From: Xanthomonas campestris pv. campestris str. ATCC 33913
Lineage (GTDB): Bacteria > Pseudomonadota > Gammaproteobacteria > Xanthomonadales > Xanthomonadaceae
Assembly: GCF_000007145.1 (NCBI RefSeq)
Contig: NC_003902.1
Location: 4,136,497-4,168,496, forward strand
DNA: 32,000 nucleotides
Direction: 5' to 3'
The notes under the pieces were generated by a model that ran no database searches, had not been told where the DNA came from, and saw nothing but the letters and a program-made list of their open reading frames with translations. Of this stretch, positions 1 to 27,335 are shown piece after piece (positions within the stretch are counted from its first letter, which is position 1; each line of letters opens with the position of its first letter). A program made the translations under genes and the position numbers.

Positions 1-569
1 TCGGCAGCGAGCGTGCGGTGCCGCTGGAGTTGCACGTGATCAGCGCCAGCCACCGAGACCTGGCCCAGCGCGTCTCCGCGGGCGAGTTTCGCGAAGACCT
101 GTATTACCGACTCAACGGCGTGGTGCTGCATCTGCCGCCCTTGCGCGAGCGCAGCGACAAGGCCGAGTTGATCCGCACCCTGCTGCGCGAAGAGAACAAC
201 GAGCGCGGTGTCCGCATCAGCGAAGAGGCCATGCACAAACTGCTCAGCTACGCGTGGCCCGGCAATCTGCGCCAGCTGCGCAACGTGCTGCGCACCGCCG
301 CGGTGCTGTGCAGCGATGCGGTGATTCGCCTGCCCAACCTGCCGCAGGAAATCGTCGATGCCGGCAGTGCGCCGTGCCTGGTCGATGGCCGCGCCGTGGC
401 CGCCGACGACATGCCCGGGCGCGTGGCGCTGGACCAGGCCGAGCGCCTGGTCCTGCAGCAGCAGCTCGAACGACACCGTTGGAATGTCAGCCGCACCGCT
501 GACGCGCTGGGCATCAGCCGCAATACGCTGTATCGCAAGCTGCGCAAGCATGGGTTGGAAACGGGGTGA
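1..569 (+). CDS. sigma-54-dependent transcriptional activator, C-terminal part (5' end outside window)
   Basis: The frame is open from the window edge (phase starts at nt 3) to TGA 567-569. It carries enhancer-binding-protein AAA+ C-terminal motifs (FREDLYYRLN, AWPGNLRQLRN) and a Fis-type HTH (ISRNTLYRKLRKHG). Confidence 0.85.
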   Translation, partial: GSERAVPLELHVISASHRDLAQRVSAGEFREDLYYRLNGVVLHLPPLRERSDKAELIRTLLREENNERGVRISEEAMHKLLSYAWPGNLRQLRNVLRTAAVLCSDAVIRLPNLPQEIVDAGSAPCLVDGRAVAADDMPGRVALDQAERLVLQQQLERHRWNVSRTADALGISRNTLYRKLRKHGLETG

Positions 570-578
570 CTGAGCGGC

Positions 579-608
579 GGGGATTGGTGATTGGGGATTG
601 GGGATTCG
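579..608 (+). repeat. 7-nt periodic repeat block A (GGGGATT GGTGATT GGGGATT GGGGATT CG)
   Basis: Four tandem heptamers start 10 nt after the activator stop codon, G-rich on the gene's sense strand. The block is followed by the hairpin caaagcc-N8-ggctttg. Confidence 0.8.
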
Positions 609-762
609 TCAAAGCCAAGGCAGTGGCTTTGCGCTGACATTTAGAGCGATCAACACAATTATTTCTTGGCCATCAGACGGGTGGTGCTGTGGCCGTGTGC
701 GGCGTTTGTCATGCGCGCATGTCGCGATTGCGGAGCGGGTGCTCTGGGCTTAGCTGCAGGGC

Positions 763-864
763 CCTTGCCCGCCCACCATCGCGGGACACGCTGCAAGTAC
801 GTCCTTGTAAGCTCTTACGCGGCATCCATGCCGCGTAAGGTCCCGCGACGGTGAGCGGGCAAGG
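763..864. repeat. ~102-bp long-hairpin (REP/MITE-like) element, copy 1
   Basis: Outer arms ccttgcccgc..atcgcgggac pair with gtcccgcgac..gcgggcaagg. The inner perfect palindrome is cttacgcggcat-cc-atgccgcgtaag. A related copy lies inverted at 1854-1960. Confidence 0.75.
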
Positions 865-947
865 ACCAGTGGAGATGGTCGGTGTGCATGGTGCAAGCAA
901 TGCTTGACGTGGGTTGCTTAGAACCTGTTCACGATCTTTCCTGATCA

Positions 948-1343
948 GTGCAGACTATGCGGATGCGCCAAAAGACCTATCCGAGTGACATGAGCCGGGA
1001 GCAGTTCGAACACGTGCTGCCGATTCTGGAACAAGCGCGTAAGCGCACCAAGCCACGCCGTGTGGATATGTATGAGGTGTGGTGCGCAGTGTTGTACGTG
1101 CTGCGAACCGGTTGCCAATGGCGAGCGCTACCCAGCGACTTTCCGAAGTGGCGAACCGTGCACTCGTACTTTGCCAAGTGGAGCGAGTGCGACGATGAGG
1201 GAGTGAGCCTGCTGGAGCAGGCACTTAAAAAATCAGGTTGGCGTGGCCCGCGCCAGACAGGAGCGCAACGCTTGCACCAGGTTCTTGATCGTGGACGCGC
1301 AGAGCGTAAAGAACACGGACACAGCAGGGCAAAAGGGATATGA
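948..1343 (+). CDS. IS5-family transposase OrfA (N-terminal DNA-binding part)
   Basis: The product (YPSDMSREQFEHVLPILE...GCQWRALPSDFPKWRTVHSYFAKW) is typical of the IS5/IS427 N-terminal domain. The likely true start is ATG 957 or 963. An A6 tract lies at 1227-1232. Confidence 0.85.
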   Translation: MQTMRMRQKTYPSDMSREQFEHVLPILEQARKRTKPRRVDMYEVWCAVLYVLRTGCQWRALPSDFPKWRTVHSYFAKWSECDDEGVSLLEQALKKSGWRGPRQTGAQRLHQVLDRGRAERKEHGHSRAKGI

Positions 1344-1761
1344 CACGGGCAAGAAGGTGTCGGGCATCAAGCGGCATATCGCTGTTGATACTCAGGGATT
1401 GCCCCATGCAATCGCGGTGACGACGGCGGAGGTGACCGACCGCAAAGGTGCGCTGCAAGCGTTGGAGCGCTGCCAGTCAAAGTTGACGCATGTACAAACC
1501 TTACTGTGCGACAGCGGTTACACCGGAGTACGGTTTGCCGACGGCGTGCGAGAGATTTTAGGCGAACAGCTCACGGTGCAGATTGCCAAGCGCAGCGAAC
1601 TGCACACCTTCAAGGTCATGCCCAAGCGATGGATCGTCGAGCGTAGTTTTGCTTGGCTGGAGAAGAACCGAAGGCTATGGAAGAACTGCGAGCGCAAACT
1701 CAACACCAGCCTGCAGTTCATCCATTTGGCCTTCTTGGCACTATTACTCAGAAGATCGTGA
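1243..1761 (+). CDS. IS5-family transposase OrfB (DDE catalytic part)
   Basis: The product (FLIVDAQSVKNTDTAGQKGYDTGKKVSGIKRHIAVDTQGLP...DSGY...KRWIVERSFAWLEKNRRL) is a DDE_Tnp_1-type domain. The frame is +1 relative to OrfA and open back to the A6 tract. Confidence 0.85.
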   Translation: MARARQERNACTRFLIVDAQSVKNTDTAGQKGYDTGKKVSGIKRHIAVDTQGLPHAIAVTTAEVTDRKGALQALERCQSKLTHVQTLLCDSGYTGVRFADGVREILGEQLTVQIAKRSELHTFKVMPKRWIVERSFAWLEKNRRLWKNCERKLNTSLQFIHLAFLALLLRRS

Positions 1762-1853
1762 ACAGGTTCTTAGATAACCGCGCGTCCGATCATTTTCTCA
1801 ATGAAAGCCGAGCAAAGGACAAGATTTCAAGAAAACAACCGACCAACTCCAAG

Positions 1854-1960
1854 GTGCGGTGTCCTCGCCGCTTGCGGGACCGTGTGGCGGCACGGATGCC
1901 GCCACCGAGCCCCCAGGGACGGGTTCACGGCGTGTCCCGCGAGCGGTGAGGGCACCGCAC
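1854..1960. repeat. ~107-bp long-hairpin (REP/MITE-like) element, copy 2 (inverted relative to copy 1)
   Basis: The 27-nt arm gtgcggtgtcctcgccgcttgcgggac pairs with gtcccgcgagcggtgagggcaccgcac (24/27). The core shares cgcgggacacgc...gcggcatcc(a/g)tgccgc...ggtcccgc with 763-864. Confidence 0.75.
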
Positions 1961-2023
1961 TGCCGATCAGCGCGACACGCGGCCCTCCAGAGACCGCCGA
2001 GCGCGGCTGGTGCTGACGCCTTA

Positions 2024-2058
2024 CGAATCTCTAATCTCCGATACCGAATCCCCGCCCC
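2024..2058 (-). repeat. 7-nt periodic repeat block B (sense: GGGGCGG GGATTCG GTATCGG AGATTAG AGATTCG)
   Basis: It starts 5 nt after the TonB-receptor stop on the gene's sense strand. It shares its termini (GGGGCGGGGATT...GATTCGTAAG) with block F at 31556-31590. Confidence 0.75.
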
Positions 2059-2062
2059 AAAC

Positions 2063-4447
2063 TCATAACGCCCAACGCACCCCGATCAGATACTGCCGCG
2101 GCACACCGGGTGCGAGAAACCGGGCCGGCCCGGTTTCTACCGGCGCGTCCTGCGGGCGCGCCAGTTCGCCATCTGGGAACACGTCTTCGGCTACTGCGGC
2201 ATACGTGGCGTACTGGCGGTCAAACACATTGTCGATCCGCGCGAACAGCGAGAGTCGTTCGCTGAGTTGCCAGCGCGCCTGCAGATCCACCAAGGCATAA
2301 CCGGCGGTGCCGATGTCGATACGTTCGGGTGCGGGCTCGCCGTCTTCAGCGTTATCGACCTGGCCGTCTTCGTTGCCGCTGGCCACGCGCCCCGACACCG
2401 CGCGTAACCCCGCACCCAGCGTCAGTGCATCGCCCTGCCATTCGACCCCGAGCTTGAGGTTATGCCGCGGCAGTGCGGCAATGCGCAGCCCCGGGCGCAA
2501 GGTGATCACGCGTTCGCCGGAGAGCAGCTCACCGTCGCTGCGGTAGGTCGCATCCAGATAGCTGTAGCCCGCCGACCATTGCCAGGCGCCCGCCTGAAAC
2601 CGCATTGCCGCATCGGCGCCCTGGTAGCGGGTGCGCCCCACGTTGTCGAAATAACCCAGTTGGGTGTCTGGTGCGCGCAGGAACAGGATGTCGTCGCGGT
2701 TGTCGGCACGGTACACCGACAAGGTGACGTCGCTGTCTTGCGAAGGCGCCCAGCGCGCACCCAGCTCGTAGGTGCGCGAGATGATCTGCTCCAGCCGCGG
2801 GTCGGCCTGCAGCCCGGTCGGCAGCCGGCACGGTTGGGTGGGGTCGGCGCAACCCAGCTCGATGGCGGTGGGTGCGCGGCTGTTCTGCGCGACCGAGCCA
2901 TACACAGTGAGCCCCTCATGCAACCGATGGGTGAGGCCCAGCGATGGATTGGCCTTGGCATACACGAAGCGCTCGCGCGGGCGGTCGCCGTCCTCGGCGG
3001 TGGAAAGAATGTTGTCCACGGTGACGTGATTCCAGCGCACCGCGGCGGTGAGATGGGTGGCCGCATCCAGCGCCCAGGTGTCGGCAACGAACACGCCCAG
3101 CGTCTTGGTGCTGCCGCGTACGCCGGAGAAGAACGCGCGTTCGGCATCCGGATCGGCGGCAACCGAGCGGTCTGGCTGCACCCAGCCCTCGCGGGCGAAT
3201 TGCTGGTAACGCACATGGCCGCGATCGAAGGTGGCGCCGGTGCTGAGCGCATGGGCGCCCCATTGCTTGCTCACATTCACCGCCACGCCCTGCGCTTCCT
3301 GGCGCATCTGGGTGGTATTGAGCGCGCCGGTGGGCAAGGTATCGGCATCGGCGCGAGCGACGTCGCAATCGGCATCCAGCGCAGTGCCATCTGCGGCATA
3401 GCCGGAGGCGCACTCTTCGACGAACTCCTCGTAGTCTTCGCCGATGTCGCCATTGACGGTGTCACGCCGGCCCACGCGCGAGTAGGCCAATGCATGCAGC
3501 GCGGTGTCCGCATCGGAGCGGTGATCCAGCTGCGCGGTGAACAAGGTATTGCGGTTGCGGGTGAGGTCGGGCGAGGTGTAGACCGCGCGGCGGTCGGCAC
3601 GGTACAGGCCCGGCCTGCTGCCGTCGTCGGTGTAGCTTGTGTCCGGCAGCAAGCCGTTGCCGATCAGGCGGCTGCGCCCATGCAGCACCGACAGGCTCCA
3701 GTCGGTCTGCTCGCCCTGCTTGCCGACCTTGCCGAACACCGTTCCCAGCCGGCCTTCGGACGCATCGCGCCAGCCGTTTTCATCGAAGCCGGTGACCGCC
3801 ACAAACCCATGCCAGCCGTCGTTGCCGGCAATGCCGTAGCTGGCATCCAGGCGCTTGCGCGCGCCGCTGCCGATGCTGAGCTCGCCTTGTGCGCCGGGCG
3901 CGGTCAGCCCCGAGGCGGTAGTGAGCACCACCGCACCACCGAGCGTGTTGGGGCCAAACAACGGATTGGAACCGGGCATCAGCGTGACTGCGTTGATCGC
4001 CGCTTCGGGCAGCATGTCCCAGCTGACGATGTCGGCGAAGGGTTCATTGAAGCGCACGCCATCCAGATACACCGACACGCCCTGCGAGGCACCCGGCAAC
4101 GCGGAGGCGCGGAAGCCGTGGAAGGTGAGATCGTTCTGGAATGCACTGCCCTGCACGTCATTGCCATCCACGCCGACAAAACGCCGCTGCAGCAGATCGC
4201 CCAGGTTGTTGCTGCGCCCGCGCGAGAGCTCGGCGCGGTTGGCCGATTGCACCATGTAGGGCAGCTGCGCGGCATCGATGGTGGTGCCGGGGATCGGTGT
4301 GGCGGTCACTTCGATGCGATCCAGCCAGGTCACCTGCGGCGCCTCGGCCGCGATGCCCATCGCCGGCCCCGCCAGCAGCGCCATCGCGCATGCACCCGCC
4401 AACGTCTTCCGCTGCACTCCCGCTGCCCTGCGCTTGCCTGCTGCCAT
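2063..4447 (-). CDS. TonB-dependent outer-membrane receptor
   Basis: 794 codons. It has a signal peptide (ALLAGPAMGIAAEA) and a plug start (LDRIEVTATP, SNNLGDLLQR, FRGF-type HGFRAS). The C-terminal part is a long beta-barrel. Start ATG 4447 is preceded by GGAG and lies 10 nt after the upstream stop. Confidence 0.9.
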   Translation of the reverse strand: MAAGKRRAAGVQRKTLAGACAMALLAGPAMGIAAEAPQVTWLDRIEVTATPIPGTTIDAAQLPYMVQSANRAELSRGRSNNLGDLLQRRFVGVDGNDVQGSAFQNDLTFHGFRASALPGASQGVSVYLDGVRFNEPFADIVSWDMLPEAAINAVTLMPGSNPLFGPNTLGGAVVLTTASGLTAPGAQGELSIGSGARKRLDASYGIAGNDGWHGFVAVTGFDENGWRDASEGRLGTVFGKVGKQGEQTDWSLSVLHGRSRLIGNGLLPDTSYTDDGSRPGLYRADRRAVYTSPDLTRNRNTLFTAQLDHRSDADTALHALAYSRVGRRDTVNGDIGEDYEEFVEECASGYAADGTALDADCDVARADADTLPTGALNTTQMRQEAQGVAVNVSKQWGAHALSTGATFDRGHVRYQQFAREGWVQPDRSVAADPDAERAFFSGVRGSTKTLGVFVADTWALDAATHLTAAVRWNHVTVDNILSTAEDGDRPRERFVYAKANPSLGLTHRLHEGLTVYGSVAQNSRAPTAIELGCADPTQPCRLPTGLQADPRLEQIISRTYELGARWAPSQDSDVTLSVYRADNRDDILFLRAPDTQLGYFDNVGRTRYQGADAAMRFQAGAWQWSAGYSYLDATYRSDGELLSGERVITLRPGLRIAALPRHNLKLGVEWQGDALTLGAGLRAVSGRVASGNEDGQVDNAEDGEPAPERIDIGTAGYALVDLQARWQLSERLSLFARIDNVFDRQYATYAAVAEDVFPDGELARPQDAPVETGPARFLAPGVPRQYLIGVRWAL

Positions 4448-4457
4448 GCTGGTCTCC

Positions 4458-5564
4458 TCAATAAAGCACGATCGATTTGATGCCGCGCGCCGCACGCAGA
4501 TCCGCCAGCGCCTGATTGATGTCGTCCAATGCCAGCGTGCGCGTGATCAGCGGTGCAAGCTGCAGATCGCCGCGCAGATACCGCTCCACATAACCGGGCA
4601 GTTCGCTGCGGCCCTTGACCCCGCCAAAGGCGCTGCCGCGCCACACCCGCCCGGTGACCAGTTGGAAGGGCCGCGTGCTGATTTCCTGCGCGCCATCGGC
4701 GACGCCGAGGATGACGCTCTCGCCCCAGCCCTTGTGGCAGCACTCCAGCGCCGCGCGCATTGCACCGACATCGCCGATGCATTCGAAACTGTGGTCGGCG
4801 CCGCCGTCGGTGAGGTCCACGATCACCTGCTGGATCGGCGCGCCGTAGTCGCGTGGGTCCAGGCAGTCGGTGGCGCCCAGCGCGCGTGCCAAGGCGAATT
4901 TTCCTGGGGCGATATCCACCACGATGATGCGCCCGGCCTGCGCCAGCACCGCGCCCTGGATCACCGACAAACCGATGCCGCCCAGGCCGAATACCGCCAC
5001 GCAATCGCCAGGGCGCACGTGGATGCTGTTGAGCACCGCGCCCACGCCGGTGGTGACCGTGCAGCCGAGCAGGCAGACCTGATCCAGCGGCGCATCCGGA
5101 TGGATCCGCGCCACCGCGATCTCCGGCAGCACCGTGTATTCGGAAAACGTGCTGGTACCCATGTGATGCAGGATCGGCCGCCCATCCAGCGAGAAGCGGC
5201 TGCTGCCATCGGGCATCAGCCCACGCTCCTGGCTGCTGCGAATCGCCTGGCACAGATTGGTGCGGCCGGAGCGGCAGAACTTGCAGACGCCGCATTCGGG
5301 CATGTCCAGCGGAATCACGTGGTCGCCCACGCGCACGCTGGTCACGCCGATACCCACTTCCTCGACAACCCCGCTGCCTTCCTGGCCCAGGATCGCCGGA
5401 AAACTACTGGCCGGCGCATGCGCCAACGCATGCGCATCGCCGTGGCAGATGCCGGTGGCCACCAGGCGCACCAGCACCTCGCCCGGACGTGGCGGCTGCA
5501 GGTCCACTTCTTCGATGCTCAGCGGCTGGTGCGGGCCCCAGGCCACCGCGGCGCGTGTCTTCAT
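4458..5564 (-). CDS. class III (glutathione-dependent formaldehyde dehydrogenase-like) Zn alcohol dehydrogenase paralogue
   Basis: 368 aa, collinear with FrmA/AdhC ([11 protein letters not shown]..., [45 protein letters not shown]). It reads CHGD instead of CHTD and LGQEG instead of LGHEG. Confidence 0.85.
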
Positions 5565-5598
5565 CCAGCCTCCCGGGCGCGCATCGGCATGCTGCCGC

Positions 5599-6645
5599 TC
5601 AGCGCGCGATCACCACGCCCCACGGCAATTCGCCGACAGGGATCTGTTTGATCTCACGCAACGTGGCGGTGTCGATCACGCTCACCGAGTTGGAGCGCCC
5701 GTTGGCCACGTACAGCTTGTCACCGGCCGGGGTCAGCGCCGGATTCCACGGGCGCAGGCCGACCGGGATTTCGGCGATGCCGGCACCGGTGCGGGTGTCG
5801 AGCACACTCACGCTGCCAGCGCCGCCATTGGAGGCATACAGCCGCGTGCCATCGGCCGACAAGGTCACCCCGGCGGTGCGCACGCCGGCCGGAATGCTGG
5901 CCCGGCGCGTGCGTGTCTGCAGGTCGATCACATCCACCACGTTGGCGGTTTCCTGCGCGATGTACACGCTGTGGCCATCGGGCGCGAAGGCCATGCCACG
6001 CGGATGGCCACTGGTGGCGACCACGCCGCGCGAACTGTGCGTGGCGAGGTCGATCATGTCCATGTCGTTGGAGCCCTCATTGCTGGTGAGCACCCACTTC
6101 CCGTCCGGCGTGTAGGCGCAGTGCTCCGGCGCCTGGCCGCGCGTGGCGATCACCTGCTGCACCTTGAACTGGCCGACATCGATCAGCATCACCTGGTTCT
6201 GGCCTTCCACGCAGATGGCGAATTGCGTGCCGTCCGGCGACAGCGCGATGCCCTCGGCGTTCTCGCCGATCTCCACGCTGCGCAGCACACGGTCCTGCGT
6301 GGTATCCAGTTCGATCAGGCGGTGGTGCTCGGCATCGATCAGATACAGCTGTCCTTGCGGGCCGGGCAATACCTGCTGCAGCCGTTTGCCGAGCGCCCCT
6401 TGCGCACTGAGCGTGCGCACCACCGTATCGCTGGCGGTGTCGATCACCGACACCGTGCCGCTGCGCTGGTTGGGCACGAAGGCCAGCACCGGCGCAGTCG
6501 CCTTGGGCGGCGCGCTGGTGCTGGCGGCAGCGGCAGGCGTGGCCGCGGGCGCTGCGCTGTCGCGTTGGCAACCTGCCAACGCCAGCAGCGCGCACAACAC
6601 GCCTGCGGTGATCCTCCAACGTTGCCGCGCGGCCGCTGCCGTCAT
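5599..6645 (-). CDS. YVTN-family beta-propeller lipoprotein (PQQ-catabolism-associated type)
   Basis: 348 aa with lipobox LALAGC and repeated YVxN/SVID-type blades ([45 protein letters not shown]). Its ATGA overlaps the upstream cytochrome stop. Confidence 0.85.
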
Positions 6646-7244
6646 TGCGCCTTGCCCGCGGTCTTGTTGATGGAGTGGATGAAGGCCAGCAGTTTTTCGG
6701 TATCACCCGGCTTGAGCACCGGTGCGAACGGCGGCATCTGCCCCACCACCTTTTCATGGCCGATGCGGGTCTTGCCGTGGGTGATCATCGCCGCGGTGCC
6801 CTCGCTGATCAGTGCACGCAAGGTGTCGTCATCGCTGCCGTACACCCAGATGTCGTTGGTCAGCGGCGGGCACATGCCACCGCCGCCGGTGCCGCCATGG
6901 CAGGCGTTGCAGCCGGCGGAGAAATATATCTTCTTGCCTTCGGCGATGAGCTCGGGCGTGACCTTGACCTCGGGCCCCTTCGGGATCGGCAGCACCGCGG
7001 CGGGCGGCGCGGGCGGCGTAGCCGGGTCCGGCGCAGGCCCGGCGGCTGGTGCAGCGGCCGGCGTGCCCGGTGCGGGCGCTGCGGCATCGGCAGCCGGCGC
7101 CGGTGTGCCGGCCGCAGGCGGCGTGTCGGCGGCGGGTGCTGGCGGTGCGTCCTTGCCGCAGGCGGCCAGCAGCACACTGACCAACAACGCGCACAGCGGT
7201 GCGCGCAGGGAACGATCGAAACGACGGGCAGTAACCTTGCGCAT
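6642..7244 (-). CDS. c-type cytochrome lipoprotein (XoxG/ExaB-like electron acceptor candidate)
   Basis: Start ATG 7244 (MRKVTARRF...LLAACGK lipobox). A ~60-aa Pro/Ala linker precedes the CNACH heme motif and a distal Met (GQMPPF). The annotated longer ORF 6642-7361 was trimmed. Confidence 0.85.
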   Translation of the reverse strand: MRKVTARRFDRSLRAPLCALLVSVLLAACGKDAPPAPAADTPPAAGTPAPAADAAAPAPGTPAAAPAAGPAPDPATPPAPPAAVLPIPKGPEVKVTPELIAEGKKIYFSAGCNACHGGTGGGGMCPPLTNDIWVYGSDDDTLRALISEGTAAMITHGKTRIGHEKVVGQMPPFAPVLKPGDTEKLLAFIHSINKTAGKAQ

Positions 7245-7308
7245 GAACGAACCTTTCTGACAATCGGAGGGAACACCGCGCACCCCTTGCACGCGGTGGA
7301 TGACGCAC

Positions 7309-9063
7309 TTATTGGGTGGTGCTGCGCTTGCCAGGTGCCAGCAGCGCGGCCAATGCCGCATCGCCGCGCTCCTGCGCCAAGGTCGCAGCGGTCTTACCGT
7401 CGCGATTGCGCGCAGCCGGGTCGGCGCCGGCGGCCAGCAAGCGCTTGGCCGTCGCTTCGCGGCCGGAGGCAGCCGCCAGCATCAAGGCGGTGACGCCGGC
7501 CTGGTTGGCGCCACGTACATCGGCGCCGTGCTTCAGCAATGCATCCAGAATGGCCGGGTCCTCGCGCGGTACTGCAAACATCACCGGCGTAAACCCGGTG
7601 CGGTTGGCGCCACGTGCCTTGGCGCCGGCTTTCAGCAACGCCTCAACGACACCGACGTCGGCGTACGACACCGCCAGCTCCAGCGCGTTCCAGCCATCGC
7701 TGGACACGGTGTCCAGTGGCGCGCGGCGGGCGAGCAGCCGTTGCACGCTGTCCGCATCGTTGCCCCAGGCGGCCTTCATCAAGGCCGTCCAGCCGTTGCC
7801 ATCACGCGCGTCAAGGCGTGCGCCGGCGTCGATCAGCAGGCCAACCAGGTCCGGTTCCTGATTGCGGATGGCCTGGTGCAACGGTGGCTCGCCCAGCAGG
7901 TTGGGCTGGTTGGCATCGGCGCCATGGCGTAGCAACCACGCTGCACGCAGCGCATCACCGGCATCCAGCGCGTGGGCCAGTTCCTGGTTCGGATCTGCGC
8001 CATCGGCGATGCGCAGCTGCAGTTGGGCCAGCTCCTGCGAGGACGTCGCGGCATTGGTGCTTTTCGGTGCGGACGCGGGTGTGACATACGGCCCATGCGA
8101 TGCCAGATCGCCGGCCACAATGCAGTCCGCACACCGCACCAGCGGCACGTGATAGCTGCGCAGAATTTCATCGATCTTGGCGGCGCTCTGCTGCAGGGCG
8201 GTGTTCAGCGCATCGCGCAGTGCCGCGTTCTTGCGCGCCACGGCCCAGGCCATCGAATACTCCAGCACCGCATCGTCGATGGTGTTGAGCGGCACCACGC
8301 CAAGGTTGTTGCGTGCGGCGTAGTACCCAGCCACCGGGCCCCAGGATTCGGCCGCATCCAGCTCACCGGCGGCAACGCGCTCGACCAGTTTGCCGGGATG
8401 CTCTTCCGGCGCGGTGGCCGAGTCGTAGAACAGGTATTTCACCTCGCCCGACACGCCATGTTCGTACAAGGCCTGACGGGCAGGCGAACTCTGGAACACG
8501 CCCAGCCGCAGTTTTTTCAGGGCCGGGTCGTCGAGCGAGGTGGGTACCAGGTCCAGGCCCTTGCGCGTGACCAGCACATAGGGCGAGCGATACAGCGGCC
8601 GTGTGGTCAGGCCCATTTCGAAATCGCTGTTGAGGTCCATCAACACATCGCAGCGGCCGGCATTGATGGTGCTGCGTGCCAGACCGCGCTGGTAATAGGT
8701 GCGCCATTCGTATTCCAGCCGGCGGCCCATGGCCTCGGCCACGACCTGCGCAATCTTGTTCTGGAAGCCTTCGCCAGCCTTGTTGGACAGCGGCATGTTG
8801 CCGGGGTCCGCGCATACGCGCAGCACCGACGGATCGGCGGCGGGTGGAGGCGTGGACGCTGGCGCCGGCGACGCAGTGGGCGTGGCCGGCGCAGCATCGG
8901 AATGAGAAGCGCGAGCCGTCGGTGAGGACGGCTCGCGTGTGCAACCTGCGGCGACGAGTCCGAGGCTGCACCCCACCAGCACCATGCACAGGTGCCGGGT
9001 GAGGCCACGCACGCCGGCAGTGACCTGCCGGTGTGCGTGCCGAACGCCTTGCAGATGCGTCAT
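7309..9063 (-). CDS. quinoprotein-dehydrogenase-associated MoxJ/XoxJ-like periplasmic binding protein fused to C-terminal ankyrin repeats
   Basis: 584 codons from ATG 9063, which forms an ATGA overlap with the dehydrogenase stop (alternative start 8985). The lipoprotein-like signal is LVAAGC. The SBP-fold part reads VLRVCADPGNMPLS...YVLVTRKG. Five to six ANK repeats occupy about 7312-8037. Confidence 0.85.
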   Translation of the reverse strand: MTHLQGVRHAHRQVTAGVRGLTRHLCMVLVGCSLGLVAAGCTREPSSPTARASHSDAAPATPTASPAPASTPPPAADPSVLRVCADPGNMPLSNKAGEGFQNKIAQVVAEAMGRRLEYEWRTYYQRGLARSTINAGRCDVLMDLNSDFEMGLTTRPLYRSPYVLVTRKGLDLVPTSLDDPALKKLRLGVFQSSPARQALYEHGVSGEVKYLFYDSATAPEEHPGKLVERVAAGELDAAESWGPVAGYYAARNNLGVVPLNTIDDAVLEYSMAWAVARKNAALRDALNTALQQSAAKIDEILRSYHVPLVRCADCIVAGDLASHGPYVTPASAPKSTNAATSSQELAQLQLRIADGADPNQELAHALDAGDALRAAWLLRHGADANQPNLLGEPPLHQAIRNQEPDLVGLLIDAGARLDARDGNGWTALMKAAWGNDADSVQRLLARRAPLDTVSSDGWNALELAVSYADVGVVEALLKAGAKARGANRTGFTPVMFAVPREDPAILDALLKHGADVRGANQAGVTALMLAAASGREATAKRLLAAGADPAARNRDGKTAATLAQERGDAALAALLAPGKRSTTQ

Positions 9064-9363
9064 CGTGCGGTCTTCGCTGCTGCGTTGGCGGTGCCGCCAC
9101 CTGCGGCCGCCGTGGCGGTCGCACTGGCGGTCACGGTCTTGCCTGCACCATCGATGCGGAAGGTATGCACCATGCCGCCGAGCGGGATCTTGTCGAAACC
9201 GGCGCCAAACGCCAGCCCGGCAGCACCCAGCGCGCCGTACGGATCCGCCGGATCCAGACCTGCCGCCACCGGCAACCCAATCCAGCCGCCGATGCCGGAG
9301 AACACCGCCACGTACTGGTGGCCATTGGCCTTGTAGGCGATCGGGTTGCCGATGATGCCGGAG
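9060..9363 (-). pseudogene. PQQ-dependent alcohol dehydrogenase, C-terminal fragment (about 100 codons) left of the IS3 insertion
   Basis: The frame reads S-GIIGNPIAYKANGHQYVAVFSGIGGWIGLP..., the last propeller blade of PQQ-ADHs. It joins in frame to 10598 when the IS and one GAG copy are removed. Confidence 0.9.
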
Positions 9364-9389
9364 TGATACGCCCAGGGTTCCGTAGACAC

Positions 9390-10244
9390 TCAAGACCCTC
9401 GTTGCGCGTAGCGCCGTTCAAACTCTACAGGTGACAGGTCGCCAGTTGAACCGTGGCGGCGGTTGGGGTTGTAGAACATCTCGATGTAGTCGAATACCTC
9501 GGCGCGAGCGGCGTCCTTGGTGGGATAGGTCAGCCGCCTGATCCGCTCGCGTTTGAGCAGGCCGAAGAAGCTCTCCACGGGTGCGTTGTCGTGGCAGTTG
9601 CCACGCCGACTCATGCTGCACACCAAGCCATGGGACGCCAGGAAACTGCGCCAGTCATCGCTGGTGTAGACAGACCCTTGGTCCGAATGAACCAAGCAAC
9701 CAGCGTTGGGTTTGCGCCGCCACACCGCAGACAACACCGCCTGCACGACCAACTCGGTGTCGGCCCGATCGCGCATCGCCCAGCCGACGACCTGCCTGGA
9801 AAACAGATCGATCACAACAGCCAAATACATCCAGCCTTCATGCGTGCGGATGAAGGTGAAATCGCTCGCCCAGGCCGTGTCCGGCTCCGTCACGTCGAAC
9901 TGTCGGTCAAGCAGGTTGGCCGCCGCCTTGCACTGCATTCCTCCATGGAAGCGCGGTTTGCGACCATAGCCCACCTGGGCACGCAGTCCCTCGGTGCGCA
10001 TCAGCCGATGCACCCGATGACGACTACAACGCTCACCCAGATCGCGCAGATCCGTGGTGATCTTGCGATGCCCATAGACACTGCCGCTGGCCAGCCAGTG
10101 GTGCTTGATTAGTCCAAGCAAGCGATCATCTTCCTTGGCGCGCTCACTGTTGGGCGAGCACAACCAGGCGTAATAACCCGACCGGTTGACCCGCAATACC
10201 CGGCACATTGCACACACCCTGAATTCCTCGCAGTGGGCTTGCAT
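9390..10244 (-). CDS. IS3-family transposase OrfB (integrase/DDE domain)
   Basis: 284 aa with rve-type motifs (WASDFTFIRT, VHSDQGSVYTS, GNCHDNAPVESFFGLLKRE). It is probably made as an OrfAB fusion by a -1 frameshift. Confidence 0.95.
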   Translation of the reverse strand: MQAHCEEFRVCAMCRVLRVNRSGYYAWLCSPNSERAKEDDRLLGLIKHHWLASGSVYGHRKITTDLRDLGERCSRHRVHRLMRTEGLRAQVGYGRKPRFHGGMQCKAAANLLDRQFDVTEPDTAWASDFTFIRTHEGWMYLAVVIDLFSRQVVGWAMRDRADTELVVQAVLSAVWRRKPNAGCLVHSDQGSVYTSDDWRSFLASHGLVCSMSRRGNCHDNAPVESFFGLLKRERIRRLTYPTKDAARAEVFDYIEMFYNPNRRHGSTGDLSPVEFERRYAQRGS

Positions 10245-10261
10245 GAAGGCGTACTTTGCCT

Positions 10262-10555
10262 TTACCCCTTGGCAAAGTACGCGGCGGCCTTTTTTAGGAT
10301 GTCGCGCTCCTCGGTCACTCGACGCAACTCTGCCTTCAGCCGCCGAACCTCGGCGCTCTGGTCCACCTCGGCGCGATGCACCACGCCAGACTTGCCGAAC
10401 GTGCGCAGCCAGGCGTACAGGCTGTGCGTGGTGACACCCAGCCGCTCGGCGACTTCTGCCACCTTGAACCCACGATCAGTCACTTGCCGGACCGCCTCGA
10501 TCTTGAACTCATCCGTATATCGCTTGCTGCTCATAGACACCTCCGAATCGACCAT
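10262..10555 (-). CDS. IS3-family transposase OrfA (HTH)
   Basis: The product reads KRYTDEFKIEAVRQV...VAEVAERLGVTTHSLYAWLR...LKAELRRVTEERDILKKAAAYFAK. The likely true start is the internal ATG at 10534, preceded by GGAGG. Confidence 0.95.
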   Translation of the reverse strand: MVDSEVSMSSKRYTDEFKIEAVRQVTDRGFKVAEVAERLGVTTHSLYAWLRTFGKSGVVHRAEVDQSAEVRRLKAELRRVTEERDILKKAAAYFAKG

Positions 10556-10597
10556 TTTCCATGGCCTTGAGATGTCTAGGAAACCCTGGGCGTATCA

Positions 10598-12315
10598 GAG
10601 GGCAACTTCATCTCCCACAGCTTCTTGCCGGTGTCCTTGTCCACTGCGCGGAACCAGCCGTCCAGCGTGCCGTAGAACACCAGCCCGCCATCGGTGACCA
10701 GGGTGCCGCTCCACACCGGGAACTTCTCCTTGATCTCCCACTTGGACTTGCCTTCCACCACGTCGAACGCCTTGACAATGCCCAGTGCGCCGGGCTCGTT
10801 GGGCTTCATCATCACGTTGGCGAACACATACGGCAGGCCCATCATGGTGTTGCCGCGTTCCTGCGGCTCAAGCTCCATGTGCCAGTTGTTGGTGCCGCAG
10901 AAGAACACCGCCGAATTGGCCGGATCCACCGAGCACGGCTGCTGGTCCTTGCCGCCCATTGCCGACGGGAACGCCTGCACTTTCTTGCCGCGTTCCAGTG
11001 GCGAATGCGCAGCCACCTTCACCGGGCGGCCGGTCTTCATGTCGATGCGTTCGGCCCAGTTGGCCGGCACGAACTTGTGCGCGCGCAGCAGCGTGCCATC
11101 GCGGCGATCGAGCACGTAGGCAAAGCCGTTGCGATCGAACTGCACCACCGAGGGAACTTCCTTGCCGTCGATGGTCAGGTCGACCAGGATCGGCTCGTTG
11201 ATACCGTCGTAATCCCACTGGTCGAACGGGGTTTTCTGGTAGCCCCACACCGCTTCGCCGGTGTCGATCTTGCGGGCGAACAAGGTCATCGACCACTTGT
11301 TGTCATGCTCGCCGTTGTTGCATTCCTCATGCGAGGTCTTGCCGCAGCGGTACGACGGGCTCCACAGCCCCGGGTTGCCGGTGCCGTAGTAGAGCAACTT
11401 CAGCTTCGGGTCGTAGCTGTACCAGCCCCAGGCCGCACCGCCGCCGCGCTTCCATTCGTCGTTGGGAAAGGTCTTCACGCCCAGGTCGCCGAGCTGCCCA
11501 TGTTGCGGGTTGGCCTTGTTGAAATCGGCGCCCAGGCAGATGGATTTGTCGGTGCCGGCCGCATCGCAGGACCACGCCTGCTTACCATCGGCCAGGTTGT
11601 AGGCGGCCACGCGCCCAAGCACGCCGAACTCGTTGCCGCTGATGCCGGCGATCACTTTGCCGTCGGCAATGATCGGCGCCATGGTGATGGTTTCGCCCTT
11701 GTCGGGGTGGCCAAGTTTCTGCTTCCACACTTCCTTGCCGGTCTTGGCATCGAGCGCGATCACATCGCCACTCAGGCTGCCGAACACCAGCTTGCCATCG
11801 GCATACGATGCGCCGCGGTTGACCGTGTCGCAGCACGCCACTGCCACCGAGCGTTCGTCCTGCTGCGGGGTGTATTTCCACAACACCTTGCCGCCGTCGT
11901 CCTGCGATGCCAGATCGATCGCGTACACGTTGTTGGGATACGCGCTGACCATGTACATGATGCTGCCGATCACCAGCGGTTGGCCTTCGTGGCCGCGCGT
12001 GGCGTCGGTCTTCATTTCCCACGACATCTTGAGGTTCTTGACGTTGTCGCGATTGATCTCCGCCAACGGGCTGTGGCGGGTCAAGGCGAAGTCGCGACCG
12101 ACACCGCCCCAGTTATCCGGGTTGCTGGCGTTGGTGGTGAATTCGCCATCGGTATCGACCACTGCGGCCGCCGGCGCCGCTGCGGCAGGTGCCGCCGTTT
12201 GCGCAGGAGCGGCAGGTTCGGCCGGCGTGTCTTTCTTGCAGCCGGCCAGCACAGCGCTCAGTGCAAGCATGAGCAACACGCCGCCACGCGCGCTGCGACA
12301 GGAAGATTGGTGCAT
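10598..12315 (-). pseudogene. PQQ-dependent methanol/ethanol-family dehydrogenase (XoxF/PedH-like), N-terminal 573 codons, interrupted by IS3
   Basis: Start ATG 12315 is preceded by GAGAGGGG and followed by lipobox AVLAGC. The sequence has the vicinal Cys pair ACCD, the W-D-Y-D-G motif (11217-11203) and multiple W-docking propeller repeats. The reading frame runs into the IS end after ...KLWEMKLPS. Confidence 0.92.
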
Positions 12316-12422
12316 TGCGTCTACCCCTCTCGATTGAACAACCCGCTGGTTGAAGCATCCCGAGGCGCCGGCGTGACAGCGGCCGATCGCATCGCAGACG
12401 TCGGAAACGTCGAGGGAGATAG

Positions 12423-12438
12423 AGCAAAGCCCATGCCA
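12423..12438 (-). promoter_or_regulatory. sigma-54 (-24/-12) promoter candidate for the dehydrogenase operon
   Basis: The minus strand reads TGGCAT-GGGCT-TTGCT with correct GG-N10-GC spacing, 108 nt upstream of ATG 12315. A sigma-54 activator gene lies at the other end of the cluster. Confidence 0.6.
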
Positions 12439-12478
12439 GTGCACTGGTGCGCTGCACCACGTCGCGCTGACGCGGCTT

Positions 12479-12989
12479 TCACGTTGGTGACGCGGGCTTG
12501 TCCATCGGAGGTGTCACGGATATGGCACAGTTTGCGCCGTGCGTGCTGTGACACGGATGGAGCAGTTCGATATAGGAGGCTTGCGGATGGCCGTTATGGC
12601 GGGGCGTGGTGCCGGCCATTTCCGCCATCTCCTCCAGTCGCTGATTTCGCCGAGTAGCACGATTGGGAAGCACTCCACGGTGTGCGCATGCCATTCGGGC
12701 GCGGGATCACATCCAGGCGCGAAGCCGATGTCCAGCAGCCAATCGCCCAAACGGCGGCCAGGTGCGCCTCCTCGCCGGACAGCTGCATCGATGCCAGCGG
12801 TGCGGCGGCGAAGCGGCGAGGCGGGCTTCGCCCTAGATGCATCACGGACAGCCTGGCCGGACAACGCCAACCGCTGGCGACATGGGTGGCCGGTGCGTTG
12901 CCGACCGACGCCTGCGCATTGCCGGCCAGTGTGTCGATCGACGACCTTCGCCGCCTGTTCGCCGACCCGGCCTGCAGTTCCTGCGCCAT
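12479..12989 (-). pseudogene. possible degraded gene (cupin-like fragment) read across three frames
   Basis: Protein-like stretches appear in successive minus frames: ...SMQLSGEEAHLAA / LGDWLLDIGFAPGCDPAPEWHAHTVECFPIVLLGEISDW / LEEMAEMAGTTPRHNGHPQASYIELLHP. No single intact frame exists. The evidence is weak. Confidence 0.25.
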
Positions 12990-13780: not shown

Positions 13781-14500
13781 CTATTTCCAGCCCGGCAGTT
13801 GGGTGGTATCCAGCCCGCCCACCTCGAACTCGGCGGTGCGCGTGCCGCCGGCCTTGACCGGGAACGCGATGCTGATGCGCTTGGCGCCGCGCACCAGTTT
13901 CCACAGCGCCTTGTCGTCGTCGATAAACATGGCGATTGCCTCGTCGGTATCGGGGCGATGTGCCGCCATCGGGCGCGCGGCGCCACCGTCCACCGACACC
14001 TGCACCTTGCAGCCGCGGTAGCAATTGAAGTCGCCGGCCTTCAGCACGAGATAGCTGTGGCGCTTCCACTGCGGATGGTCGCGAAACACCAGGCTCACCG
14101 GCTTGGGGCCGCTGCCATCCACATCCACGCGCTGCTTGGCATCGATCATCGCCGAGCGCTGCGTGCCGCCCTTGGCCGGCACCTGCGAGTACTGCCACAG
14201 CGCCTGCATGCGGCGCAGCTCGCGCGCCTGCTCGCCCTTGGCCTTGATCTCGGCATAGCCGGCCTCCACGCGGGTAGCGGCCGGCGTGCCGGCGTAGCCT
14301 TCCAGCAGGGCGGCGCCATGCGCGCGCGCCATGTCCCAGTTCTGTGCCTGCACCGCTGCGTCGTACTGCTTGGCCAATGCCTCGGCCTCGTGTTCCTTGG
14401 CCTGCGCCTGCGCGGCTTCCTGCGCCTGGCGTTGCGCCTCGCGATCGGTGCAGCCACTCAGCGCCGCGACGCACAGGGCCGCACTCAACAGATATTTCAT
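13781..14500 (-). CDS. hypothetical lipoprotein
   Basis: 239 aa with signal and lipobox MKYLLSAALCVAALSGC and high GC3. Its stop lies 3 nt before the HAD start. No family was recognised. Confidence 0.7.
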   Translation of the reverse strand: MKYLLSAALCVAALSGCTDREAQRQAQEAAQAQAKEHEAEALAKQYDAAVQAQNWDMARAHGAALLEGYAGTPAATRVEAGYAEIKAKGEQARELRRMQALWQYSQVPAKGGTQRSAMIDAKQRVDVDGSGPKPVSLVFRDHPQWKRHSYLVLKAGDFNCYRGCKVQVSVDGGAARPMAAHRPDTDEAIAMFIDDDKALWKLVRGAKRISIAFPVKAGGTRTAEFEVGGLDTTQLPGWK

Positions 14501-14620: not shown

Positions 14621-15057
14621 ATAGGAGCGCACTTGTGGGCGATCGGGCTTTACCGGGAACGCCTCATCGCGCACAAGCGCGCTCCTACGGGGCGTGGAGC
14701 GTTTGAGGATGCGGCGTTGCGTGCGCAGAGGAGCCCACGCTCTCGTAGGAGCGCACTTGTGCGCGATCGGGCTTCACCGGGAATGCTTCATCGCGCGCGA
14801 GCGCGCTCCTACGGAGCGTGCAGCGTTTGAGGGTGCGGCATTGCCTGCGCAGAGGGGCCAACGCTCTCGTAGGAGCGCACTTGTGCGCGATGGGCTTTAT
14901 CGGGAACGCGGCATCGCGCGCGAGCGCGCTCCTACGGAGCGTGCAGCGTTTGAGGATGCGGCGTTGCCTGCGCAGAGGGCCCACGCTCTCGTAGGAGCGC
15001 ACTTGTGCGCGATGGGCTTTACCGGGAACGCCTCATCGCGCGCTAGCGCGCTCCTAC
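14621..15057. repeat. tandem array of GTAG-type REP units (3 full ~123-bp units plus a terminal REP)
   Basis: Unit starts are at 14621, 14745, 14869 and 14991 (periods 124, 124, 122). Each unit has a REP hairpin (GTAGGAGCGCACTTGTGCGCGAT...ATCGCGCGCGAGCGCGCTCCTAC) and a second hairpin (GAGCGTG...CACGCTC). Confidence 0.9.
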
Positions 15058-25880: not shown

Positions 25881-26082
25881 ACGGCCGCTTCAATTGATTG
25901 CATGCCCAGTGAGTCAACACGCTCTATTGGCGACTTGCAGAGATGTCTCGAAAACAGCTGCGCTTCTCGCACCCATCATTGAAACGTCGCGCTGTTTAAC
26001 CGCGGTTGCCTTGCGCGCGGCATTTGAACTTCAATGGGACTGATACGCCCAGGGTTTCCTAGACATCTCAAGGCCATGGAAA

Positions 26083-26376
26083 ATGGTCGATTCGGAGGTG
26101 TCTATGAGCAGCAAGCGGTATACGGATGAGTTCAAGATCGAGGCGGTCCGGCAAGTGACTGATCGTGGGTTCAAGGTGGCAGAAGTCGCCGAGCGGCTGG
26201 GTGTCACGACGCACAGCCTGTACGCCTGGCTGCGCACGTTCGGCAAGTCTGGCGTGGTGCATCGCGCCGAGGTGGACCAGAGCGCCGAGGTTCGGCGGCT
26301 GAAGGCAGAGTTGCGTCGAGTGACCGAGGAGCGCGACATCCTAAAAAAGGCCGCCGCGTACTTTGCCAAGGGGTAA
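26083..26376 (+). CDS. IS3-family transposase OrfA
   Basis: The protein is identical to copy 1 OrfA. The likely start is ATG 26104, after GGAGG. Confidence 0.95.
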   Translation: MVDSEVSMSSKRYTDEFKIEAVRQVTDRGFKVAEVAERLGVTTHSLYAWLRTFGKSGVVHRAEVDQSAEVRRLKAELRRVTEERDILKKAAAYFAKG

Positions 26377-26393
26377 AGGCAAAGTACGCCTTC

Positions 26394-27248: not shown

Positions 27249-27335
27249 GTGTCTACGGAACCCTGGGCGTATCAGACACAGCGAACTCTGAGGTTCTCCA
27301 ACTTTCCCAAGACGCCAAGCAGCGTCTGCACAGGG

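Follow-up and report, generated by a model that had tools for sequence, protein, structure and literature searches.

The 32,000-nt window analysed here, a stretch of the Xanthomonas campestris pv. campestris ATCC 33913 genome (contig NC_003902.1, positions 4,136,497 to 4,168,496 of the forward strand), carries a six-gene locus that we read, at a probability of about 0.7, as the Xanthomonas version of the lanthanide-dependent methanol oxidation (xox) operon, equipped with a LutH-like TonB-dependent receptor. Its first gene is predicted to encode a pyrroloquinoline quinone (PQQ) methanol dehydrogenase of the lanthanide-dependent XoxF1 clade. In this genome that gene is a pseudogene, broken by an insertion sequence (IS), and the five genes downstream of it are full length. 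An earlier note on this DNA had drawn the same operon; its layout held, with every coordinate verified, but its picture of a working system does not apply here, the splitting of gene 1 having been implied there only by the word "reconstructed". The genes of the locus are listed below by window position (ADH, alcohol dehydrogenase).

12315 to 2063, minus strand: the six-gene locus as a whole
ATG at 12315, stop at 9060, minus strand: gene 1, PQQ dehydrogenase (xoxF), interrupted by an IS
9063 to 7309, minus strand: gene 2, XoxJ-like protein fused to ankyrin repeats (xoxJ::ankyrin), 584 aa, TIGR03871 and Ank_2
7244 to 6642, minus strand: gene 3, c-type cytochrome in the XoxG position, Cytochrome_CBB3 and Cytochrom_C domains
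6645 to 5599, minus strand: gene 4, YVTN beta-propeller lipoprotein, 348 aa, TIGR02276 repeats
5564 to 4458, minus strand: gene 5, class-III ADH-like (ADH3-like) protein, 368 aa, TIGR02818
4447 to 2063, minus strand: gene 6, TonB-dependent receptor, 794 aa (XCC3474/XC_0687), Plug and barrel domains

The six genes are co-oriented and tightly packed, with ATGA start/stop overlaps at 9060-9063 and 6642-6645 and intergenic gaps of 64, 34 and 10 nt, the last of these separating the ADH3-like stop codon from the start of the receptor gene. Between positions 1700 and 12800 we found no sigma-70-like promoters and no excess of terminator-like sites over chance, with none at the ADH3/receptor junction; the interval between 4458 and 4447, where a separate promoter or terminator would have set the receptor apart, held neither. 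The XoxJ-like and XoxG-like genes, the propeller, the ADH3-like gene and the receptor gene thus form one compact unit, as the earlier note had inferred, and we infer co-transcription of all six genes, for which this anatomy gives good support.

The identity of the dehydrogenase was assessed on the sequence obtained by removing the IS together with one copy of its CTC target duplication, which joins the following two fragments.

10598 to 12315, minus strand: xoxF 5' fragment, residues 1-573, with LAGC lipoprotein signal, Ala/Pro-rich linker, Cys161-Cys162, Glu229, Asn314, Asp368 and Asp370
9060 to 9363, minus strand: xoxF 3' fragment, residues 574-672

Splicing restores KLPSGIIGNPIAYKANGHQYVAV, in agreement with the solved structure 7o6z and with 672-aa orthologues, and yields a protein of 672 aa in which the vicinal cysteine pair at 161-162 and the WDYDG motif at 367-371 are both present, as the earlier note had stated. 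The spliced protein exceeds the cut-off of the PQQ methanol/ethanol dehydrogenase model TIGR03075 (598.6 bits against 480, residues 55-598). In a search of all solved structures its closest match was 7o6z (891 bits, E = 4.6e-267), which the depositors name just "methanol dehydrogenase" and which we take to be the XoxF1 enzyme of Methylacidimicrobium thermophilum. It was followed by 4mae, the XoxF2-type enzyme of Methylacidiphilum (632 bits), by 6oc5 (522) and 6dam (511), both entered as "lanthanide-dependent methanol dehydrogenase XoxF", by MxaF structures (about 460-520) and by PedH/ExaA (about 300-320). The placement in the XoxF1 clade is by ranking of bit scores against solved structures. 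Glu229, Asn314, Asp368 and Asp370, counted in the alignment, correspond to the cerium ligands Glu172, Asn256, Asp299 and Asp301 of 4mae; the WDYDG motif recurs unchanged in 7o6z and 4mae, with WDFDG in its place in 6oc5, and Cys161-Cys162 aligns with the CC of all three. Asp370 therefore falls in the metal-coordinating column, beside the lanthanide aspartate of 7o6z, 4mae and 6oc5. With all four ligands and the cysteine pair in place, the sequence is that of a lanthanide-type enzyme, in line with what had been proposed.

The second line of evidence comes from the receptor, which combines PF07715 (Plug) and PF00593 (barrel) domains, does not reach the thresholds of the models for siderophore, haem, B12, copper or PqqU receptors, and fits no specific NCBIfam family. 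Among solved structures it gave only a marginal match of 28 bits over 36 residues. Its loops are acidic and carry cysteines (DYEEFVEEC...DADC; ELGCADPTQPCRLP; SGNEDG) and are invariant in alignment A3, and the family as a whole is marked by DYEE(F/Y)VE.C...D.DC (Cys346, Cys361), ELGCADP..PC.LP (Cys533, Cys540) and SGNEDG. Such loops would fit the binding of a hard cation or of a chelate.

Outside Xanthomonas, orthologues 49-55% identical to this receptor were found in seven contexts, all seven of which contain a PQQ dehydrogenase or formaldehyde-oxidation genes within 10 kb. The receptor gene of Cupriavidus necator diverges from a ped-like cluster in which a PQQ dehydrogenase and a cytochrome are encoded together with a radical-SAM/SPASM protein resembling PqqE; that of Noviherbaspirillum follows an AcoR-type sigma-54 activator and adjoins a PQQ dehydrogenase, aldehyde dehydrogenases and a set of pqq genes (pqqA, pqqD, pqqE and further candidates). 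Two contigs from metagenomes share one layout, namely a PQQ dehydrogenase, a binding protein, a cytochrome, a Zn-ADH, GFA and the receptor, with a convergent sigma-54 activator, and a third has an XoxF1 cluster 3.6 kb from the receptor. In Dokdonella koreensis (L083) and Rhodanobacter (L084), at positions 5400-12500 of those loci, the receptor adjoins a HisKA_3/GerE two-component system and a Zn-ADH, accompanied in Dokdonella by GFA. The domain types of this pair are those of the lanthanide-sensing PedS2/PedR2 of Pseudomonas putida; with it, the receptor family may have a regulatory module of a second kind. All five PQQ enzymes that neighbour receptor orthologues have D-[YF]-D and the cysteine pair, and they belong to three clades (72%, 47-48% and 35-39% identity to the XoxF of the window).

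Blanvillain 2007 lists XCC3474 in Table S1 as a protein of 794 aa with TonB box WLDRIEV, signal cleavage at 33-34 and a C-terminus in ...RWAL, names it "Ps-TBDR fepA" and files it under "putative partial CUT locus" (CUT, carbohydrate utilisation); the "pseudo" label appears to derive only from the non-aromatic C-terminus. The best homologues given there from other organisms are H16_B1039, Reut_A1787 and Mfla_1253 of Methylobacillus flagellatus (35/49). According to Hemmann 2023 (PMC9988556), La3+ induces Mfla_1253, a strain in which it is deleted no longer shows the growth response to La3+, and the authors consider it the orthologue of the lanthanide receptor of M. extorquens; a sigma-54 activator follows Mfla_1253 and another adjoins xoxF, where a sigma-54 promoter is predicted. 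On these grounds we consider it probable, if some way from assured, that the receptor imports lanthanide.

Upstream of the operon, and beyond its far end, lie elements that would place it under sigma-54 control.

12423 to 12438, minus strand: sigma-54-type -24/-12 element TGGCAT-N5-TTGCT, 108 nt upstream of the xoxF ATG
12445 to 12459, minus strand: 15-nt palindrome TGGTGCAGCGCACCA, abutting the -24 element and conserved in alignments A1 and A4
12512 to 12565, minus strand: conserved 54-nt block with nested inverted repeats TGTCAC..GTGACA and CACAG..CTGTG, 74-127 nt upstream of the -24 element
18 to 569, plus strand: 3' end of a sigma-54 activator gene (acoR, XCC3472/XC_0689), truncated at the window edge, with Sigma54_activat, AAA_lid_14 and HTH_8 domains

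The promoter element, reported by the earlier note at this very position, is the single match to TGGCAY-N5-TTGCW in the 32-kb window, where 0.10 would be expected. Across 13 Xanthomonas species, TGGCA and the TGCT of the -12 region (GG/GC) are invariant in the alignment, and spacer and flanks vary. The 54-nt block is nearly invariant in seven Xanthomonas species whose flanking DNA fails to align (alignment A4), and is a candidate binding site for the sigma-54 activator; the 15-nt palindrome is likewise a candidate regulator site. The convergent gene, which the earlier note had correctly read as that of a sigma-54 activator, encodes an enhancer-binding protein of the AcoR/MimR type that is conserved in all strains, and its full-length orthologues have 653-680 aa with MimR_N/PAS domains at the N-terminus. 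The sequence features expected of a sigma-54 promoter, GG-N10-GC at conserved spacing with an enhancer-binding protein gene nearby, are thus present.

To establish how widely the locus is conserved, we scanned one genome per species, which gave 80 loci (L001-L080), and then searched these with the six window proteins. All Xanthomonas loci except L015 and L024, which end too early, show the same arrangement, in order and in orientation, of xoxF, the cytochrome, the propeller, the ADH3-like gene and the receptor, and xoxJ::ankyrin was matched in all Xanthomonas loci of sufficient length but L013. The set covers X. hortorum, arboricola, pisi, dyei, floridensis, codiaei, cannabis, melonis, prunicola, phaseoli and euvesicatoria, together with the more distant AmX2 and NCPPB 1128. 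Receptor identity among them is 71-93%, and the receptor is retained at the 3' end throughout, so that orthologous clusters lacking it were not found at the level of the genus. In more than 20 Xanthomonas species, moreover, the locus lies in collinear order between the same neighbouring genes, and its G+C content equals that of its flanks. These two observations rule out a horizontally acquired island; what the earlier note had called an island is a syntenic core locus. The host had been described as a plant-associated xanthomonad, which X. campestris pv. campestris, a plant pathogen, indeed is.

Beyond the genus, the trio of xoxF, xoxJ::ankyrin and cytochrome is universal in XoxF1-clade loci, and the receptor is not. 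Coralloluteibacterium has an orthologue of 62% identity about 6 kb further on; the receptors near the xoxF1 loci of Dokdonella and Nevskia are only 33-35% identical, and at the Lysobacter xoxF1 locus the one match (27%) lies on the opposite strand. Pseudoxanthomonas, two of three Methylacidimicrobium loci and the many Hyphomicrobiaceae loci gave no receptor match within 10 kb.

Examination of the accessory genes revealed how far the module follows known xox systems. Gene 2 exceeds the cut-off of TIGR03871, the quinoprotein dehydrogenase-associated substrate-binding protein (264 bits against 212), falls below that of the MoxJ equivalog TIGR03870 (125 against 258), and matches Ank_2 (7e-54), with five or six C-terminal ankyrin repeats, an AAGC lipobox and an Ala/Pro-rich linker. 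Binding-protein and ankyrin parts occur in one ORF (open reading frame) in 74 of 76 XoxF1-clade loci, from Xanthomonas to Methylacidimicrobium and Hyphomicrobium; we found no literature on XoxF1 or xoxJ together with ankyrin. Gene 3 has a CNACH haem motif, an LAAC lipobox and a long Ala/Pro linker, and its position is kept in all loci; it is XoxG-like by position only. The XoxF-J-G module that had been proposed is accordingly borne out for F, by ligands and TIGR03075, and for J, by TIGR03871, but not, beyond gene order, for G. The YVTN repeats of gene 4 score 182 bits with TIGR02276 and make it kin to propellers associated with PQQ-dependent catabolism.

Gene 5 scores 594.4 bits against a cut-off of 543.95 with TIGR02818, the S-(hydroxymethyl)glutathione dehydrogenase/class III ADH model. 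In horse ADH numbering, Thr48 belongs to the proton relay and Cys46, His67 and Cys174 are zinc ligands. Two changes, Thr48Gly and His67Gln, are found in all Xanthomonas in-cluster copies (79-96% identity), whereas canonical residues are retained in the ADH copies beside xoxF1 in Dokdonella, Nevskia, Hydrocarboniphaga and Coralloluteibacterium; because the changes are kept in every Xanthomonas copy and are lacking in the other genera, the gene 5 product is probably a conserved, re-tooled class-III ADH paralogue. The alcohol/aldehyde oxidation foreseen by the earlier note is therefore upheld as regards membership of the ADH3 family, but the two changes make its aldehyde step uncertain, and formaldehyde oxidation cannot be assumed.

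Four of the products share a lipobox followed by an Ala/Pro-rich linker (XoxF LAGC, XoxJ::ankyrin AAGC, cytochrome LAAC, propeller LAGC), as read in the sequence of these N-termini.

12240-12315, minus strand: XoxF, N-terminus with lipobox and linker
8940-9063, minus strand: XoxJ::ankyrin, N-terminus with lipobox and linker
7160-7244, minus strand: cytochrome, N-terminus with lipobox and linker
6570-6645, minus strand: propeller, N-terminus with lipobox and linker

The XoxF lipobox is present in Xanthomonas and Coralloluteibacterium and possible (AAC) in Lysobacter and Pseudoxanthomonas; XoxF of Dokdonella, Methylacidimicrobium and Hyphomicrobiaceae has an ordinary signal peptide and no lipobox. 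The four lipoprotein signals suggest a membrane-tethered assembly in the Xanthomonas lineage; where it would sit, and whether it might touch the receptor, is speculation.

The IS that breaks xoxF, and the other elements of its kind in the window, are the following.

9364 to 10597, minus strand: IS3-family element of 1,234 bp inside xoxF, with orfA at 10555 to 10262 and orfB at 10244 to 9390
26040 to 27274, plus strand: second IS3-family copy, 100% identical and in inverted orientation, forming a 1,235-nt perfect inverted repeat with 9364-10598
about 920-1770, plus strand: IS5-family element, annotated IS1480 in ATCC 33913, with DUF4096 and DDE_Tnp_1, between the receptor and activator genes

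The IS3-family element in xoxF ends in 25-nt TG..CA inverted repeats, contains two transposase ORFs (NF033516 transpos_IS3, 333 bits), is flanked by a 3-bp CTC target duplication (10598-10600 and 9361-9363) and matches IS3-family copies from plasmids of X. campestris at 99.8% identity. It lies after codon 573, so that this genome has no uninterrupted frame for the complete eight-bladed propeller of XoxF and the dehydrogenase is therefore inactive here; the expected product is a truncated XoxF of about 579 aa with an IS-derived tail. By polarity, the element probably also impairs transcription of the five downstream genes from the sigma-54 promoter.

Comparison among strains demonstrates that the insertion is recent and polymorphic. 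The window is 99.96-100% identical to the loci of X. campestris pv. campestris genomes and is of the 8004 lineage; the ADH3-like protein is found residue for residue on CP000050.1, which we take to be strain 8004 of X. campestris pv. campestris, and on numerous further genomes of the pathovar. The IS also lies within xoxF in L093 (8004), L097 and L099, whereas L094 (CP066947.1), L096 and L101 have an intact 672-aa xoxF. DNA of the latter three aligns to window positions 1-9363 and from 10598 onward with a 3-bp overlap, the empty target site, which is also seen in other species. Three draft genomes have two xoxF fragments with a collapsed IS. The two IS3-family copies of the window are 15.4 kb apart, and in L102 (CP101174.1) the segment between them is inverted, so that the 3' fragment of xoxF adjoins the hslVU side. 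An assembly artefact and a genus-wide feature were both considered for the IS and are ruled out by the precise ends, the target duplication and the empty site in sister strains. In L102 the IS copy itself carries a further inserted IS. The IS5-family element is missing in other species, and some X. campestris strains, among them L094, lack it too.

In strains with an intact xoxF, to which alone the following scheme applies, the neighbouring AcoR-type activator would act at the conserved upstream palindromes and drive the sigma-54 promoter, giving one transcript of six genes. The lipoprotein XoxF1-clade enzyme, with PQQ and a lanthanide, would oxidise methanol, helped by the ankyrin-fused XoxJ-like binding protein, and the c-type cytochrome would accept the electrons, with the YVTN beta-propeller lipoprotein as a further part of the unit. 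The divergent class-III ADH paralogue would probably take the aldehyde product or its thiol adduct, and the LutH-like receptor would carry lanthanide, probably chelated, over the outer membrane, XoxF being loaded in the periplasm. The module is not, as the earlier note had it, "self-contained": no pqq genes, inner-membrane or ABC importer, lanmodulin or chelator synthesis genes were found within the 32-kb window, and the ligand of its receptor is a matter of inference.

Several observations weigh against this interpretation. Outside Xanthomonas, the majority of XoxF1 clusters show no receptor gene within 10 kb, so that the receptor is not an obligatory XoxF1 partner, and conversely the Dokdonella koreensis and Rhodanobacter receptors have no PQQ enzyme within 10 kb. 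The link between the receptor and Mfla_1253 consists of a published BLAST match at 35% identity. In the comparison of distant receptor sequences, which used L039 and L071 only, the verrucomicrobial cirA-like receptor by xoxF1 (L039) was 26% identical and lacked the acidic and cysteine motifs. Among the accessory proteins, gene 3 scores 27 bits with the cytochrome cL model TIGR03872, whose cut-off is 147.8, gene 4 scores 166 bits with TIGR03866, below the 287.3 required, and the active-site motifs of gene 5 (residues about 40-65) read CHGD...LGQEG rather than the class-III CHTD...LGHEG.

The main rival to a lanthanide receptor is one that imports PQQ, as PqqU/YncD of E. coli does, an apo-quinoprotein being paired with uptake of its cofactor. 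The absence of pqq genes from the window would suit such a role, as would a weak match to the PqqU model NF041535, and the company that the receptor family keeps with PQQ enzymes of several clades could be explained by a common cofactor no less than by a common metal. That match, however, amounts to 72 bits against a cut-off of 1200, which excludes identity with PqqU. The PQQ reading is weakened further because the Noviherbaspirillum orthologue adjoins pqq genes and that of Cupriavidus necator a PqqE-like radical-SAM/SPASM gene, hosts with no obvious need for PQQ uptake; the associated enzymes are all of the Asp-x-Asp type, and the homologue Mfla_1253 responds to La3+. We judge PQQ import to be improbable. 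A different objection concerns the substrate: the operon could serve periplasmic detoxification or energy spilling for other alcohols and aldehydes (ethanol, formaldehyde, plant volatiles), with methanol not the main substrate and the need for metal secondary. XoxF enzymes accept formaldehyde and ethanol, activators of the AcoR/MimR type are found with acetoin, ethanol and alkane-alcohol systems, and the receptor family also accompanies PedH/ExaF-like ethanol-type dehydrogenases and aldehyde dehydrogenases. Yet the enzyme is nearest to a solved XoxF1-type methanol dehydrogenase, the operon has a homologue of the formaldehyde-type (class III) ADH and not an acetaldehyde dehydrogenase, and the proposal, which seems unlikely to us, would alter the substrate and leave the architecture as it is.

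The two older readings of the receptor fare less well. Were it part of a partial CUT locus, its position behind the xox genes would be incidental; Blanvillain 2007 (Table S3) does place XCC3471 (sugar kinase) to XCC3477 under that heading, and Xanthomonas has many carbohydrate receptors. The sugar kinase, however, lies beyond the convergent activator gene, whereas the receptor gene starts only 10 nt from the ADH3-like stop. Orthologues outside Xanthomonas keep PQQ or formaldehyde genes, with a sugar kinase adjoining the receptor in none of the seven contexts, and the eight expression ratios given for XCC3474 in Table S4 of the same study range from 0.23 to 1.84. We hold a carbohydrate role to be very unlikely. 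The annotation "fepA"/"involved in Fe transport" and a generic similarity to TIGR01783 would make the receptor an ordinary ferric-siderophore receptor, placed here by chance. The similarity, at 103 bits, is under the cut-off of 223.5, and the solved-structure match is the short one given above. No Fur box above chance was found either: E. coli-type matches were no better than in shuffled sequence, and the Xanthomonas consensus had none within three mismatches. Reporter fusions to all 76 receptor genes in Blanvillain 2007 identified nine that are iron-starvation-induced and Fur-repressed, and XCC3474 is not among them. We reject Fur-controlled siderophore uptake, one of the outcomes that the earlier note had named as refuting its proposal, and give chance placement of a siderophore receptor hardly any weight.

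Taken further, the lanthanide reading leads to a broader proposal that we put forward tentatively and consider doubtful as a whole. The receptor may represent an unnamed, widespread lanthanide-uptake family in Xanthomonas, Dokdonella, Rhodanobacter, Cupriavidus and Noviherbaspirillum, which are not known methylotrophs, marked by acidic loops of disulphide type and accompanied by Asp-x-Asp PQQ dehydrogenases from three clades and by regulators of the sigma-54 or two-component kind. In Xanthomonas, where its gene is the last of the operon, the four lipoproteins on their Ala/Pro tethers might form one membrane-anchored complex for metal hand-over and methanol oxidation, including the re-tooled ADH, with which a major genus of plant pathogens would exploit pectin-derived methanol.

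Two further features of the window lie upstream of the operon. A 239-aa unannotated ORF at 13781-14500 (minus strand), upstream of a HAD-hydrolase gene, has no Pfam match; it is conserved at the DNA level in other Xanthomonas species and appears among the genes annotated in X. campestris genomes. Between it and an M1 peptidase gene lies a tandem array (14622-15057) of 3.5 copies of a 124-nt G+C-rich unit with 91% matches, whose copy number appears variable among X. campestris strains in extra alignments. An Rfam scan of the window gave no match.

Provided that intact copies function in the proposed way, rare-earth-dependent methanol oxidation is open to most Xanthomonas species; methanol is abundant on and in leaves through pectin demethylation, and the supply of lanthanides would then matter for the physiology of a major genus of crop pathogens. 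The genomic association also singles out a candidate family of lanthanide receptors outside the methylotrophs, where outer-membrane uptake is unexplained (e.g. in P. putida). The widely used laboratory strains of the 8004 lineage carry the IS-broken xoxF, and negative phenotypes in them would therefore mislead. Lastly, a xox operon is the better interpretation of the "partial carbohydrate utilisation locus" of 2007 with its "pseudo-TBDR fepA".

Comparison with known systems places the locus among several partial counterparts. The earlier note had called a receptor within the operon "not the textbook arrangement", which holds against Methylorubrum extorquens but overlooks earlier reports of receptor-xoxF linkage, noted by Keltjens 2014 and Wu 2015 according to a passage in Wehrmann 2019. 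In M. thermophilum AP8, Picone 2021 (PMC7907005) describes the TonB-dependent receptor cirA three genes from xoxF1 and proposes it for rare-earth uptake. Methylacidimicrobium shares with the window the XoxF clade (63-64% identity to Methylacidimicrobium loci) and the order xoxF, xoxJ::ankyrin, cytochrome; the verrucomicrobial receptor of AP8, however, lies upstream and outside the operon, that of LP2A (L039) being the 26% identical one, and Methylacidimicrobium has no ADH3-like gene, a propeller match of 25-27% on the opposite strand and an XoxF without lipobox. The XoxF3 clusters of Acidobacteria/Gemmatimonadetes (Voutsinos 2024, PMC10875860) are likewise depicted with xoxF, cytochrome c, a YncE-type propeller and a TonB-dependent receptor, but belong to another clade and other phyla and include cytochrome oxidase and NRAMP genes, absent here.

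The lut cluster of M. extorquens, in which the LutH receptor stands with an ABC transporter and with lanmodulin nearby, resembles the window in having a TonB-dependent receptor, which in M. extorquens is needed for lanthanide-dependent XoxF function; unlike here, the lut genes are apart from xoxF and include those for a periplasmic binding protein and an ABC importer, and none of these lut genes is in the window. The ped/exa system of P. putida (PedH, its associated propeller, binding protein, cytochrome c550 and the PedA1A2BC transporter) shares an Asp-x-Asp dehydrogenase, a MoxJ_2-type binding protein (TIGR03871), a TIGR03866-related YVTN propeller and a c-type cytochrome, and an orthologue of the window receptor accompanies the ped-like clusters in Cupriavidus and Noviherbaspirillum. 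P. putida itself differs in that it reportedly has no homologue of the methylotroph lanthanide receptors and uses an ABC transporter; the enzyme clade, too, is another than that of the window (35-39% identity).

Xox clusters, LutH-like receptors and sigma-54 control are thus known already. Our search of the literature on xoxF and lanthanides in Xanthomonas found no description of this locus, and a paper cited for xoxF1 in Xanthomonadaceae makes no mention of methanol, PQQ, xoxF, TonB or quinoprotein; the union of these elements in one operon of a plant-pathogen genus, with lipoproteins and a divergent ADH3 paralogue, is not described in the literature searched. A further close parallel is M. 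flagellatus KT, an obligate methylotroph with a homologous receptor (Mfla_1253, 35% identity, 49% similarity), an adjacent activator (Mfla_1254), and a sigma-54 promoter ahead of xoxF Mfla_0344, beside activator Mfla_0343 (PMC9988556). There, receptor and xoxF lie at separate loci and the XoxF is of another clade, whereas the Xanthomonas operon joins in one place the elements that are split in M. flagellatus: receptor, sigma-54 activator and xoxF.

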